Source of the DNA: Octopus vulgaris
Lineage: Eukaryota
Assembly (NCBI GenBank): GCA_951406725.2
Contig: OX597827.1
Coordinates: 66,340,001 to 66,404,000, forward strand
Reading direction: 5' to 3'
DNA: 64,000 nt
The notes beneath the pieces were generated by a model. That model searched no databases and had not been told where the DNA came from. It saw nothing but the letters and a program-made list of their open reading frames with translations. How positions within the stretch are numbered: position 1 is the stretch's first letter; each line of letters begins with the position of its first letter. Of the stretch, positions 28,658 to 63,764 are shown piece by piece. Position numbers and translations under genes: made by a program.

Positions 28658-29208
28658 GAGTGAGAGAGCAGTGCATCCCGTCAAAGTGACACTGGGGTAA
28701 AATATATGAAGTCCATTATACCCAGCATGACTACCTGTCTTATAAGAGTACACTAGGTACATGCATCATAAGCATATGTGCGAGACATGGTGATCTCATA
28801 TCAAGATAAACAGCACATGATCTTGCAGCTGGGGCCCAGTTAGAATTTTCTTCTGGTCGAGTAACCCATCCCGCTCAAAAGGTCCCTGAATAAGGGTTGT
28901 TTAAGGATGTTGAACGAAACATACATGTTTCCAGAGGTGAATTATTCAAACCCCAAAGAATCCAAAACATGGCTATGATGCTCCCCACTGCTTATGCTCG
29001 TGATCAGAGATGCACATATCGTCAGCGATTAAGGGGTATGCTCAACTGGTTAAGGTCAAACAACTGAGAAGCAAATCTGTGGTATTGAGCAGAATATTTG
29101 CTGTAACCCATCTTTTATACCAGGAGAAAATAATGTACATGATAACAGTTCCAATCAGTTAGGATAACAAGCCACGAGAGCCACTTGCTGGTACTGCATC
29201 AGGGCATT
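28658..29208 (-). mobile_element. Element X: ~550-bp non-coding repeat embedded in (TAA)n
   Basis: Colinear end to end with 52330-52886; both flanked by TAT repeats. Strand inferred from truncated copies keeping only one end. Confidence 0.88.
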
Positions 29209-29219
29209 TATTATTATTT

Positions 29220-29487
29220 TATGTTTGACTTTTGCATTATATTTGTACAAGTTGGCTCCAAGTCTCACCCAGAGACCCCAAGAGAAAACGTGTTGGAAAT
29301 TCATGTTAGTGTTATGCCTATGGTGCCATATATTTGGTTTTGTACATAGTGTTGTTCTAGAGAATGATAAAGAAACCATAAGAAAATTATGTTTGTTTTA
29401 AGACTTGAGATTACATAGTAAGAATTTTGCGTAGGATATTAGCAGTTTCCATAAGCACTATCTTTTGAATTTCTGCCATTTTGGGGG
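29220..29487 (-). mobile_element. R4/Dong-type LINE 3' end
   Basis: Minus: PKMAEIQKIVLMETANILRKILTM* then 3'UTR and TAA tail. Confidence 0.8.
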
Positions 29488-30774
29488 CTTCTTCTTCTTC
29501 TTCTTCTTATTATTATTATTATTATTATTATTATTATTATTATTATTATTATTATCATCATCATTATTATTATTTTTATCATTATTATTAACACTATTCA
29601 TTAATGAGCAAAGTCCTGATAAGCAATACAATCTCAAAAGGTAACGTGATATTTAATATATTGTTAATATATTTTCTTCCTAGCTAGTTGGCAGCATTTC
29701 TGAGGAACGCCATTTCCCTATACTCCATTGAAATAGTGTTATGACGTCGCCACATGTTCTTTAGCTATCGAACAATAGCTACACTACTTATACGAGTCTT
29801 TGCTCTTGAGAGTTCAATATGGAAATTACACGTGTATACCGTTAAAATATGCGGATCTCAAATGACTGCACTATCAAAATGTCAGTGCTACAGGTAATTT
29901 GTTTAGGAATCAGGTACTTATTGAAAAAGGCTAGCGATAAATGTAGAATATATATATATATATATATATATATATATATATATATATATATATATATATA
30001 TATGAATGCGTATTGATCCACATAGAGTTGATGTTATTAGGTTATTTTTTTGGTTTTCTTCCACATTGATAATGTTAGTTTTATGTGAATCGCCCGTTTG
30101 TATCGATAGAAGTGTTTGGACGTAGGCGATAGATAATCTAATCTAAATAAGTAGAAATTGATGTATGTAATTGGATGAAGATTTGATTAGCAACAATTCT
30201 GATATTATGCATCAATATGTAATTGGGGGAGGAATTTCGCGAGACGTTGACCCTACCATCTTATTCGTTTATAAATATATATATATATATATATATATGT
30301 GTGTGTGTGTGTGTGTGTGTGTGTGTGTGTGTGTGTGTGTGCGCGTGTGTGCTTGTCTGTGTGTATGTATATGTGTGTATATATATATATATTTATATAT
30401 ATATATACGTATGTATGTGTATATATATATATATATATATATATATATATGTATGCTTTTACATATATATATATACAAGTAGTATACGTCGATTGACGTA
30501 TATTGATAGGTACGTACAATGACTGCTTAGATTGGTTTGCCACTGAAATTCTCGGCTTGAAGTGTAAATGGAAATGAGGTGCTGAACTTGTCTATCCAAG
30601 GCGGTTAGAAGCGGTACCTGATTCAGTGGGTACATTAAATATGTTAGTCGATAAGCAATGTATTTAGCATTAGGCGAGTATATTTAGTTTATATTAAAGA
30701 GTGTAAATTAATTAACTAAAATCAATACACTCACAAAAAGTAACGTGATAAGTAATATTCTTTATACTATTATA

Positions 30775-31135
30775 CTTTTAATAGTTTCGCTCATTCGACA
30801 GCGCCCATGCTAGGGCACCGTCTTTAGTCGAAGAAATCGAACCCAGGACGTAAACCAAGTATTTATTCTATCGGTCGGTTTTGCTTAGTTACAGACCCGT
30901 AAACACACCAACATTGGTTGTGAAGCCATGGTGGGGGTACGGACGCACAAACATATATATTTATATAAATGCGACGGGCTTCTTTTAGTTTCCGTCTACC
31001 GAATCCATTCACAAGGCTTTGATAAGCCTGAGGCTATAATGGTAGACACTTGTCCAAGGTGCCATTTAGTGGGACTAGACCCCGAAGGATGTGGTTTTAA
31101 ACCAGGCTTCTTACCACACAGCTACGAGCACGCCT
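30775..31135 (-). mobile_element. SINE family A (diverged)
   Basis: Tail, body and head motifs in reverse order. Confidence 0.85.
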
Positions 31136-32476
31136 ATATAGTATATTACCAACGTATTTTCTTTGCAGGTAGTTGGCAGCATTTCTTAAAACGCCTTTTC
31201 CACATAGTCAATTGAAATATGTAAGGACATTTATGGTAGATAAGTAAAGTCTCTTACTGGTGTTTCTGGAAGAGACAGAGGATCGAGCTAATGTGTAACG
31301 AATTCACGTAATCCAAAGAATCCCGTCATCCCGTCATCGGAGAGGTCGAGATAAAACAGTACAGAAAGACAGATCCTTAATTGAAGATATTAGTAGTCAT
31401 CAGTAAGAATGAGATGCAAATGTATTAGGTAATTACATGTTTAAAACAATTAGGGAATTAATGAAATCATAGAGTTAATGAAGTCGTATAAATTTTGTTT
31501 GTATTCCCATATATAATGTTTTAATTCAGCAGGTAAATTGTTTAGCGGGGAAAAAGTTACGAATGATCCATAACAGAAGAATATAAGTTAATAAATTCAT
31601 TCTAAGATTGAAAAACGTTTTAAAAATATATATTCCTATGTGAGGTAAAGACCGATTAGAATCCATGTATAGCTAAGAAATGTACTGCAACGTGATACAA
31701 AAATGGACTAGAACCAGTGTAAAACTGTATTTATAGAAATTATTTCCATCATATATGTACTAATCAAGTCTATTGTATTGTTATCTCGATATTTCCATGA
31801 GCGACGCTATCTCAGATCGAATATTGCCGTATAAGTGTTTGTATAATACGTATGATGCAGAAATGACTATTTTGATTAAATACTACCTCACTTGCCTATC
31901 TATCTACCTATCTATCTATCTATCTATCTATCTATCTATCTATCTATCTATCTATCTATCTATCTATCTATCTATCAACATCTCATTCTCTCTCTTGTAT
32001 ATACATACATATATACACTCATATATAATGATAATAATAATAATATATATATATACACCATAATAATTATATAAATATATATATATATATATATATATAT
32101 ATTATATAATATATATATATATATATATATGTTATATATATATATATATATATATATATATATAGAGAGAGAGAGAGAGAGAGAGAGAGAGAGAGAGAAA
32201 TAGATGTAATATGTATATATATACGAATATAACGTTGGGAAAGAATCAAAAGCTTCCCTAGTCTTAATTGATATATCTAATCAGCATATTTCCTCTCATT
32301 GTTGAGAGTACCATGTTATCTATTTTGCAATTTGTTGATTCTGGAGTGTGTAAAAGCTTTCGAAAGATTGAAACATACCCGCTTGTACAATGCATAAAGG
32401 GATTTTCCTTAAACTAAGGACATACTGATTTGAATAGTTGACAGTGGGGAGGAGCAAGGTCAAAATCACAAGAAAT

Positions 32477-61749: not shown

Positions 61750-61849
61750 GAAGAAGAAGAAAAAGAAGAAGAAGAAGAAGAAGAAGAAGAAGAAGAAGAA
61801 GAAGAAGAAGAAGAAGAAGAAGAAGAAGAAGAAGAAGAAGAAGAAGAAG
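61750..61849. repeat. (GAA)n microsatellite, probably the tail of a short retroposon at 61525-61749
   Basis: Repeat directly visible; the upstream GC-richer segment interrupts a SINE A copy. Confidence 0.85.
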
Positions 61850-62736
61850 ACATCAACAACAGCTGCTTCTCCTGTTATTGCTACTATTGTCTATAAGGCT
61901 TTTTGCGACAATAGTTTTGAATAAGGTGTTTATATTTGTGCATGGACGACTTCCTCGTTTAGCATAGTTCAGCGTTTTTAAATGCATTTTTAAGGCGTAT
62001 ATAGGAGATTGACGCTATATCCAGAGCACTGTTATGTTTCTTAAACATCTTCGTTTGTGCTTCTGCCATTGTCTATATTGCAATCTTTGTAAGAGTGTGT
62101 TTGTGTATGCGTGAGTGTGTGTACGAGTGAGCGCTTGTGTGTGTGCTTATGTGTATGTATATGTGTGTTTTGGCGTGGTATTGCTGACGTAACTGTGTAC
62201 ATTTGCGATCTTGAATGATTTATAAAAAACTGCGTAGCTAGGTTACAATACTGCTAGTGTTCCCTTACCTAATACGTTTGAAAACAATAGAATATGAAAA
62301 CAAATCATGAAATATTCATATAAAAGTATTAAATAACAATTAAATTTGTTACAAGATACTTAATTAAAATGTAATATCGACATTTAAATATTTCTTCGTA
62401 TTACCTATTCTTTAAGATTCACTATTTCATTTATTTTATTATTTCAATGTATTTCGAGAAAACGTAATTTTTCGATAATATTAGTTTCCTTTAATTGGCC
62501 ATCAAAATAATTTTATAGTTTTTTTGTAAGTCTATACAATCTGAGATGACAACAGTCAATTAGTAACGCTGACAGTGAAGAGATTGTATAAAAAAAAAAC
62601 ATGTTTATATTTTACTTCTCCTTGTCTAATGGAACAATATAATGTTTTAGTTAGAGCACTAAGTATTATTTACCTACTCAGAAGAATAGAATGGGAGATC
62701 ACAAAAGTAGGATTTCAACTGAATATATATATTGCA

Positions 62737-63189
62737 TTGGGTTGTCCGGAAAGTTCGTGCCGATTTTTAAAAGAAAGAAAAAGTTAAATAAATACTTGCC
62801 ATTACATTTTTAATCAAGCAAATATGAACCATTTCGTTGCACAATGCGTCTCCACCTTTCCTTTAACTTTAAAATACCCTCTTCCAAGAATTGAGGTGGT
62901 TTCATGTCAAAGAATTCATCAAGGTATCTTTTTACATCATCTAAGGAATTGACATTTTTACCATTAAGACTATTGTGCAGAGACCTGAATAAGTGGAAAT
63001 CCGAAGGAGCAATATCTGGTGAATATGTAGGGTGAGGTAACACATCCCAGCCGTGCTGCAGCAATTCTTGTCTGGTTCCCAAAGCATAAAGTGCAGAAAA
63101 TAAACTTTTTTATCTTCCATTTTAAAGGGTTACAGAATTAACATAGGTTATAGGAACATAAATCGGCACTAACTTTCCGGACAACCCAA
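62737..63189 (-). mobile_element. Mariner internal-deletion derivative with both TIRs
   Basis: TIRs TTGGGTTGTCCGGAAAGTTCGTGCCGATTT / AAATCGGCACTAACTTTCCGGACAACCCAA-TA; ORF WDVLPHPTYSPDIAPSDFHLFRSL...NGSY; start MEDKK fused to the C-terminal half. Confidence 0.95.
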
Positions 63190-63209
63190 TATTATACAGA
63201 ATCGCTTAA

Positions 63210-63740
63210 TACAATTTGTGATATATAAGACGTGGTATCTCAAACCGAGAACTGTTCCTGTTATTGTGGCTGCCCTAGGTATGATAAGAAAGGGATGCCA
63301 ACAGATCTAGATAATTTCCCAGGAGACTCATGTCTCAGAGAAATCCAAAAGAATATGCTAACATGTATTGACCACATACTTCGAAAAACTCTATGCATTT
63401 AAATATTTCTGTTTCTTTGTATTACGTGAATATGTTTCGCTACTGCGTCTGCCACTTCCACTCCTTAAGCTTTCAGTCATACTCAAATATCCGTTCTCTG
63501 TCATTTGCTCTATGGGCGCCGGAGTGTCTCGGCACGGGATTGTAACAAACATGGAGATTAAAAGTAAATAATAATAATGATGATGACGACGATGATAATG
63601 AAGTTAATAATAATAATAATAATAATAATAATAATAATAATAATAATAATAATAATAATAATAATAATAATAATAACGATAATAATAATAATAATAATAA
63701 TAATAATAATAATAATAATAATAATAATAATAAATAATAA
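63210..63740 (+). mobile_element. R4/Dong-type LINE 3' end with (TAA)n tail
   Basis: KTWYLKPRTVPVIVAALGMIRKG...LREIQKNMLTCIDHILRKTLCI*; tail 63566-63740. Confidence 0.85.
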
Positions 63741-63764
63741 TGATGGCATGCACTGCTCTCTCAC
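63741..63764 (+). mobile_element. 24-bp 3' remnant of element X inside (TAA)n
   Basis: TGATGGCATGCACTGCTCTCTCAC matches the end of element X. Confidence 0.75.

Follow-up and report, generated by a model that had tools for sequence, protein, structure and literature searches.

Element X, a short non-coding repeat of (TAA)n tracts in an octopus genome, as a likely non-autonomous retroposon served by Dong-like LINEs

Dong, a long interspersed element (LINE) of the R4 clade, targets TAA microsatellites in moth, mosquito and snail (PMC3812793; here and below, such an accession stands for the passages of the paper that bear on the point), and both Dong of Bombyx and R4 of Ascaris carry ribozymes like that of hepatitis delta virus (HDV), which cut exactly at the 5′ terminus of each element (PMC3774820). 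In one cephalopod genome, Dong-R4 families also count among the LINEs with the most recent activity (PMC13282606). In the open-access full-text literature, we found no description of a non-autonomous partner of such microsatellite-specific Dong-type LINEs. Here, we report on element X, a non-coding repeat of about 555 nt with several copies in a 64,000-nt stretch of Octopus vulgaris DNA (contig OX597827.1, positions 66,340,001 to 66,404,000; this whole stretch is called the window), which was searched for throughout the 2.8-Gb assembly of 227 contigs. We propose, with good confidence, that X is most likely a non-autonomous retroposon, the (UAA)n-tailed RNA of which would be reverse-transcribed at nicked (TAA)n by the enzymes of Dong-like LINEs. 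X is linked to these LINEs because it forms mosaics with two of their families, LINE-A or LINE-D, because target and tail are common to them, and because 5′ re-copying is common as well.

The sense strand of X is the minus strand of the window, and positions within X are numbered from 1 to about 557. The two full copies, X1 and X2, share the sense 5′ junction ...TAATAA/ATGCCCTGATGCAGTACC and the sense 3′ junction CACTGCTCTCTCACTC/AATAATAAT... (a slash marks the junction), and are identical in 498 of 599 alignment columns, flanks counted in. The copies and the repeat tracts next to them are the following:

28343..28441, plus strand: old 5′-truncated X remnant, inverted relative to X1 (X 462–557, 84%).
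28442..28657, minus strand: (AAT)n of about 215 nt, 3′ of X1 on the sense strand, either tail or target tract (direct reading).
28658..29208, minus strand: X1, full-length X, TAA/ATGCCCTGATGCAGTACC ... CTCTCACTC/(AAT)n (X 1–557, 91% to the near-typical copy L003).
52221..52329, minus strand: interrupted (AAT)n that separates X2 from the LINE-A fragment (direct reading).
52330..52886, minus strand: X2, full-length X (X 1–557, 89%), with (TAA)n on both sides.
52962..52980, minus strand: candidate X 3′-end remnant of about 20 nt, ..GATGCATTGCTCTCCCACTG/(AAT)n, which fits in orientation and position, finds no match with BLAST and is too short to prove.
63741..63764, plus strand: extreme 5′-truncated X inside (AAT)n (X 532–555, 24/24 identical).

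A preliminary description of this DNA, made from the letters alone, had placed two full copies with identical endpoints here, and both are present, with their sense on the minus strand. It had also listed three remnants that keep the same end. One of them (63741–63764) is exact and another (52962–52980) plausible and unprovable, whereas the third, given as 28337–28441, is inverted relative to X1, which that description had missed, and is thus not simply one more copy with the same end in that tract. The 3′ end of this inverted remnant adjoins the (ATT)n side of the tract, so that it stands tail-to-tail with X1 across the repeat of about 215 nt, and its 5′ break adjoins a LINE-B fragment; the two make a head-to-head pair (28044–28441), in which the LINE-B 3′ fragment on the minus strand meets the remnant on the plus strand at 28332/28343. 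Twin priming as the origin of this inversion was ruled out by reasoning, as a (UAA)n tail finds no complement in the (TAA)n end of the top strand. X1 itself is flanked on its 5′ side by the 3′ end of a LINE-D element with a short (AAT)3 tail.

X was correctly called non-coding, without an open reading frame (ORF) or terminal inverted repeats, as stops interrupt all three sense frames and no terminal inverted repeat was found. The claim that it is not derived from transfer RNA (tRNA) also stood: ARAGORN found no tRNA in the window, Rfam at gathering scores gave no match in the whole window, and a search of X alone and of three loci at E-values up to 10 returned no tRNA, 5S, 7SL, small nuclear RNA (snRNA) or ribozyme family. 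Two weak Rfam matches, an antisense microRNA-like hairpin (E-value 0.11) and an archaeal small RNA (E-value 2.4), were taken as chance. Runs of TTTT lie in the sense strand near positions 78–81 and 513–516.

Throughout the genome, exact 21-mers of the X 5′ and 3′ ends occur 6,298 and 15,104 times, and the reversed controls 0 and 0 times. X1 as a query gave 6,420 first-look candidates, and all 40 places scored span X from position 1–8 to 549–551, the own copy at 100% and the other 39 at 91% identity; three short extra matches came with the same search. All 30 top loci that were fetched have an A-rich trinucleotide repeat 3′ of X, which is (AAT)n in 29 and AAT followed by (AAC)n in L027, and 25 of them have (TAA)n directly 5′; four of the other five begin with partial X 5′ units preceded by (TAA)n, and in the fifth, L027, LINE-D sequence is joined to X position 8. 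As an unbiased sample, the first 100 places on contig 1 with the exact X 3′ word were each aligned to the typical copy. The 24 nt 3′ of X are at least 80% (TAA)n in 89 of these and (GAA)n in 1, the other 10 having mostly short tails; on the 5′ side, the adjoining 24 nt count as (TAA)n in 78 copies, as (TTA)n in 2 and as something else in 20. Since only 1.1% of the window is made up of perfect TAA/TTA tracts of at least 12 nt, such flanks go far beyond chance and largely uphold the earlier view that X is confined to (TAA)n, in which it keeps one orientation.

The ends of the sampled copies differ sharply in their integrity. All 100 of the 3′-anchored copies reach position 551 at least, with 88 ending exactly at 557, whereas only 47 start at positions 1–3, 15 start at 4–20 and 38 beyond 20. 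For the reverse check, 41 exact X 5′ words within the same 16.5 Mb were followed downstream, and 29 have the exact 3′ word about 518 nt away (word lists compared by hand); the remaining 12, which were fetched, comprise 7 full-length copies with a mutated word, 2 with a common internal deletion (257–424) and 3 without the 3′ part. The loss is thus strongly one-sided, with 5′ shortening in 53 of 100 copies and 3′ shortening in 3 of 41, which is the signature of target-primed reverse transcription starting from the 3′ end. The proposed 5′-truncation profile is therefore borne out and symmetric truncation is refuted; likewise, X is no untranslated region (UTR) of a longer LINE, because none of the 100 copies runs upstream into a common longer element. 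The truncation points cluster at X 72–82 (7/100) and 90–98 (7/100), around the TTGTTTTG run, and these clusters could be pause sites or mark a shorter sub-family.

The full-length copies (76 aligned rows) differ from the column majority by a median of about 2.3% and a minimum of 0.9%, and older copies of 77–89% identity are also present. The main burst of X is young, and its divergence is within the span shown by the 3′ parts of LINE-A, most of which have about 97% identity with the LINE-A copy of the window. In public runs filed under five coded organisms (A–E), 55–91% of the sampled 31-mers of the typical X copy are present, so near-identical X is not confined to one label, and four public runs (organisms A–D) gave thousands of contigs each in the X search.

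The genome has at least four LINE families, LINE-A to LINE-D, that are (TAA)n-specific with a restriction-like endonuclease and end in (AAT)n, and X lies among them, in line with its first placement near such elements. Their pieces in the window are the following:

28044..28332, minus strand: LINE-B 3′-terminal part of about 290 nt, which holds the motif that had been compared with X (sequence search, 1,517 first-look candidates).
29209..29486, minus strand: LINE-D 3′-terminal part of about 278 nt (ORF end ..EIQKIVLMETANILRKILTM with its stop, 3′ UTR and short tail), directly upstream of X1 (by sequence).
50417–50483, minus strand: (AAT)n tail of the LINE-A copy, adjoining the LINE-A end.
50484..52220, minus strand: LINE-A, 5′-truncated, with the C-terminal part of the reverse transcriptase (RT), a zinc-binding motif and the restriction-like endonuclease (RVT_1, E-value 8.6e-9).
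63500..63566, plus strand: LINE-C-like 3′ end, followed by (AAT)n (by-eye comparison with the LINE-C 3′ ends in L073 and L056).

LINE-A is the dominant young (TAA)n LINE family here. Flanked by (TAA)n tracts, a full-length copy measures about 3.97 kb and has a single ORF of 1,225–1,227 amino acids, which matches RVT_1 with an E-value of 1.5e-32 and zf-RVT with 24.2 bits, under the cut-off of 27.5 bits. Its best relatives of solved structure are R2 proteins (E-value 4.6e-36, amino acids 456–1206, comprising the RT and the C-terminal endonuclease region), and its translation reads RPDIVV..IDV, which we take to be endonuclease motifs. The window copy, which ends ..AAAACTACTG(AAT)n, is 93.8–97.96% identical to 29 other sampled copies; many copies are nearly identical, and those of the 5′ UTR are 99–100% identical. 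First-look candidates numbered 58,720 with a C-terminal query, 31,793 with a mid-RT query and 1,317 with a 5′ UTR query, a fall toward the 5′ side that makes a classic 5′-truncation gradient.

LINE-B is old, with 79–83% identity among 39 scored full-span matches, own copy excluded; at other loci, it has upstream coding sequence (..IPVVVGALG..) and the end ..GAAGTAAAAC(AAT)n. LINE-C is full-length between two (AAT)n tracts in L073 (G000:C27:2897500-2907400, minus strand, about 477–5055), where it is near-intact, with ORFs of 737 and 606 amino acids split by one stop; its start, AAGCTCCGGGC.., resembles that of Bombyx Dong as printed in a primer (PMC3774820). LINE-D has 11 related copies among the fetched loci, at 78–90% identity, and its fragment in the window is preceded by (GAA)6 beside (AAT)n at 29487–29505. 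The apparent fixed 5′ ends of LINE-A and LINE-D fragments were discarded as an artefact, as the queries were already truncated window copies.

X and these LINEs are tied together by neighbourhood, by mosaics and by their 5′ ends. At 9 of 30 LINE-A loci, a copy of X lies within 1.5 kb. X is directly joined to LINE pieces in L113, which reads (AAT)n, LINE-A 830–924, LINE-A 3069–3374, X 242–557 and (AAT)n; in L149, where X 1–286 is followed by a LINE-D-type coding 3′ part; in L158, where X 1–378 is followed by a LINE-D-type 3′ UTR and (AAT)n; and in L027, described above. The simplest reading of these four joined sequences would be a single complementary DNA (cDNA) for which two or three RNAs served as template one after another. 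X is also joined to itself in L121, with inverted X 130–86 meeting X 98. At another locus (L016, 2700–3557), a LINE 3′ coding end, a repeated 37-nt piece, X 169–236 (97%) and the middle of another LINE follow one another with no (TAA)n between them; this was rejected as a family sharing the X core and is a one-off mosaic.

Tandem 5′ re-copying is common to X and LINE-A and is one link between them. At 21 of 30 full-length LINE-A 5′ ends (L079–L108; example L078/L091), one to many tandem partial copies of the first 20–31 nt (GGAACACCGGGGGACTTTTAAG..) precede the element; the units are alike within a copy, including the variable first 2–3 nt, and differ between copies. Such units may have been inherited as 5′ repeats, or may have arisen when the 5′ end was re-copied several times during integration. 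In X, the re-copied 5′ units are 18–19 nt long in L074 (5 copies), L025 and L017, 29 nt in L026 and 127 nt in L018, with 0–3 extra nucleotides or TAA between them. The longest series, L161 (G000:C1:30147900-30149300, minus strand), has (AAT)n, about 14 tandem units of X 1–66 and then full X; the junction there shares ATG with the X start, and the 5′ unit has expanded into a small satellite. In contigs of four public runs (organisms A–D), X position 1 is likewise joined back to positions inside X, with 1–3 letters added at some of the joints.

Based on these findings, we propose the following course of events. First, the LINE enzyme would nick the (TTA)n strand, and the (UAA)n tail of X RNA would pair with the nicked strand and prime cDNA synthesis. 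As X and the LINEs examined have no significant sequence in common, it would be chiefly the tail by which the template is chosen. The X RNA is predicted to have a discrete 5′ end, located at TAA/ATGCCC or a few nt from it at most, and an enzyme that reaches this end would sometimes re-copy the terminal 18–127 nt with 0–3 extra nucleotides, as full-length LINE-A would do alike. The recent burst of X would likely have been driven by LINE-A, which is very young and very abundant, and earlier bursts by LINE-D-type elements. As for the tracts themselves, a tRNA-like short interspersed element (SINE), recognised by eye only, often adjoins (TAA)n with its head end, ..GCTAACGATTCTGCCAGCTCGCCGCCTT(AAT)n on the antisense strand, at many loci (e.g. 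L022, L026, L030, L062, L071, L105, L113 and L161), and the tracts in which X and the LINEs insert may be seeded or attracted by it.

Several observations weigh against X being a passenger of Dong-like LINEs, and foremost among them is that X has no significant similarity to any LINE examined beyond the tail. X was compared with LINE-A and LINE-C over the full length, and with LINE-B and LINE-D over the 3′ ends only. BLAST with a word size of 7 found no X match in three full-length LINE-A copies or in the locus with full LINE-C (L073), where only adjacent X copies match, and tblastn, with the LINE-A and LINE-C proteins as queries and four X copies as targets, reached no better E-value than 0.87. 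The resemblance once seen between the end of X and a motif at 28111–28140 did not survive, as local alignments of X with four LINE-B copies score 20–23, against shuffle means of 20–21 and maxima of 27–28, and the motif sits about 60 nt inside the LINE-B 3′ UTR, not at the LINE-B end. Folding found no stem-loop common to the last 105–111 nt or so of X and LINE-A, -B, -C and -D. X thus lacks the shared 3′ region of the classic SINE/LINE type, so its partner is reached only indirectly. In addition, (GAA)n instead of (TAA)n stands 3′ of X in three copies (L151, L154 and L164), (TTA)n stands at the 5′ junction of three copies (L130, L208 and L028), and the remnant at 28343–28441 is inverted. The X/LINE chimeras number only 4, are spread over two LINE families, and could in principle each be a later rearrangement, and 5′ re-copying is rarer in X (4 of 30 top matches; about 6 of 100 sampled) than in LINE-A (21/30). 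The partner of X is therefore inferred from behaviour, not from sequence: of the earlier proposal of a site-specific non-autonomous partner of a Dong-like LINE, the (TAA)n retroposon behaviour is retained and the 3′ homology offered for it is given up. The copies with (TTA)n 5′ (L130, L208 and L028/L029) are 5′-truncated X with (TAA)n 3′, and their flanks are inverted repeats of each other.

Of the candidate makers of the X 5′ end, an internal promoter that has a defined start comes first in our ranking, followed by read-through with a target-pairing leader and then by a ribozyme. In the case of read-through, which we consider somewhat unlikely, X would have no RNA 5′ end of its own; its RNA would start upstream and carry a (UAA)n leader, the cDNA of which would pair with the (TAA)n target, and each full-length insertion would seem to begin at the first unique base. 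The (TAA)n found directly at the 5′ junction in 78 of the 100 sampled copies and the TAA that separates the re-copied units in L017 fit this course, as does the sealing of R2 5′ junctions by upstream target sequence on the RNA (PMC3774820). However, the units in L074, L025, L161 and L018 are joined end to start with 0–1 extra nucleotide and no TAA, which points to an X RNA ending at position 1–2 and argues against a long (UAA)n leader, and the LINE-A 5′ ends vary in their first nucleotides (AAGG, GAGG, GGGG, ATGG and AAAG), as would be expected if nucleotides had been added to a genuine RNA end.

A self-cleaving ribozyme in the first 100–200 nt or so, as in Dong and R4, is an unlikely maker of the fixed 5′ end, although the example of these elements makes it the natural first hypothesis. 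Bombyx Dong RNA self-cleaves at its 5′ junction and frees a 21-nt (TAA)7 leader (PMC3774820), the X 5′ junction is equally sharp, the extra nucleotides at re-copied ends fit an RNA ending exactly there, and the first 130 nt of X fold somewhat better than shuffles (z −2.24). Against it, no Rfam ribozyme family was found on X at E-values up to 10, and an HDV-like descriptor script, run with no positive control and so giving weak negative evidence, scored X at best at 17, against shuffle bests of up to 20; the same script gave no LINE-A candidate and a weak P1 candidate in the LINE-C of L073.

If X were instead a true SINE, with a polymerase III promoter inside it that is degenerate or escapes recognition, it would be mobilised in the same way, and the difference would lie solely in where its RNA and the 5′ end of that RNA come from. 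Its size, non-coding nature, high copy number and sharp 5′ end are SINE-like, and heads that defy classification are common, as one cephalopod repeat annotation holds 893 families of “unclassified SINE” (PMC13282606). Even so, we regard this origin as improbable, as neither ARAGORN in the window nor Rfam at E-values up to 10 found a tRNA, and Rfam found no 5S, 7SL or snRNA either, and TTTT runs lie inside the sense strand of X. Runs of this kind would be expected to end polymerase III transcription long before 555 nt.

It is very improbable that X represents a longer LINE's UTR or 3′ part, or that it arose by internal deletion from a LINE that is present. What speaks for such an origin is the hybrid L158, which joins X 1–378 to a LINE-D-type 3′ UTR and, in the 90 nt or so before the junction, shows interleaved resemblance to both X and the LINE-D ORF end, and also that X in frame 2 reads ..LIQGPFEWDGLLDLKKILTG where LINE-D reads ..EIQKIVLMETANILRKILTM and stops. 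Yet a direct alignment of X with LINE-D2 is identical in 40 of 80 columns and scores 23 (shuffle mean 24), none of 76 X rows was matched by an nhmmer profile built from 12 LINE-D-type ends, and no second hybrid like L158 was met among the 40 scored matches in each of two genome searches. A LINE-D-derived module in X 300–395, read from this one hybrid, is therefore an unproven lead. Nor do the 47 sampled copies that start at positions 1–3, none continuing upstream into common longer sequence, fit a piece of a longer LINE, and with BLAST blank against LINE-A and LINE-C, X is, so far as sequence comparison can tell, not a deletion derivative of either.

Spread of X as DNA, either as a satellite-like unit through microsatellite recombination or as a DNA transposon or Helitron, is scarcely credible, as the tandem arrays, such as the 14 or so copies of X 1–66 in L161, and the clustering of copies within repeat tracts are outweighed by the absence of terminal inverted repeats, the strongly one-sided truncation, the fixed orientation toward an asymmetric repeat (78 (TAA)n against 2 (TTA)n), and the mosaics with LINE RNA pieces and extra nucleotides at the joints, which point to reverse transcription.

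With the non-autonomous retroposon as the preferred explanation, X would add a passenger to the microsatellite-specific LINEs with a restriction-like endonuclease, and we tentatively suggest that it may be the first characterised passenger of Dong-type LINEs of this kind, recruited with only the (UAA)n tail in common; X may well be already present, unnamed, in automated repeat libraries. If this is true, Dong-type enzymes would accept any RNA ending in the target repeat, with the pairing of tail and target as the sole template test, and the thousands of X copies without LINE sequence beyond the repeat tail would offer a natural test of RNA choice. The (TAA)n target would also give every new X the same upstream context for a discrete 5′ end, through an unrecognised promoter or self-processing module in X 1–66, and the tandem 5′ re-copying in X and LINE-A would be a readable footprint of the enzyme at RNA 5′ ends. 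Together with the mosaics, the recurrent re-copying makes a data set on template switching in vivo. X and the LINEs also account for the compound, long (TAA)n loci of this genome with their many shared flanks, which matters for repeat annotation, the design of microsatellite markers and assembly.

Compared with the known systems, X has none of the inverted or hairpin ends and symmetric integrity of DNA transposons, miniature inverted-repeat transposable elements (MITEs) and Helitrons. It resembles the SINE of a SINE/LINE pair, in the model of Ohshima and Okada (PMC3747384), in being short, non-coding, high-copy, LINE-dependent and 5′-truncated with a terminal repeat in common, and differs in having no polymerase III-type head and only the (TAA)n tail in common with LINEs. 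In strict terms, X thus has the short, non-coding, high-copy and 5′-truncated form with a tail, and has neither a small-RNA head with a polymerase III promoter nor a LINE-homologous 3′ region. The short internally deleted elements (SIDEs) of R2 in Drosophila keep the 5′ and 3′ ends of their parent. X is similar to them in being non-autonomous, in its use of a site-specific LINE with a restriction-like endonuclease and in its inherited target, and differs in that it matches neither end of LINE-A or LINE-C, so that homology of both termini to a parent is absent for these two families. The reverse transcriptase of R2 is capable of template jumping and makes non-templated additions at 5′ junctions. 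The re-copied units of X and LINE-A with 0–3 extra nucleotides and the mosaics of several RNAs are like this template jumping (PMC3774820), except that here the jump usually lands 18–130 nt inside the same kind of RNA, not at a 3′ end, and iterates to about 14 units.

The closest likeness is to Dong, as known from Bombyx mori, Anopheles and the snail Biomphalaria. X differs from it in that it encodes nothing, and neither in X nor in LINE-A did the script, run without a positive control, pick up an HDV-like 5′ ribozyme; the tandem 5′ re-copying of X and LINE-A is also absent from the accounts of Dong in the passages cited (PMC3812793 and PMC3774820). LINE-A shares with the R4/Dong elements the single ORF, with the RT followed by a C-terminal restriction-like endonuclease region similar to that of R2 proteins. 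As in Dong (PMC3812793 and PMC3774820), X and LINE-A to LINE-D have a single orientation within (TAA)n and a (TAA)n end, and X therefore has the complete Dong-type target, namely (TAA)n, a fixed orientation and a (TAA)n 3′ tail.

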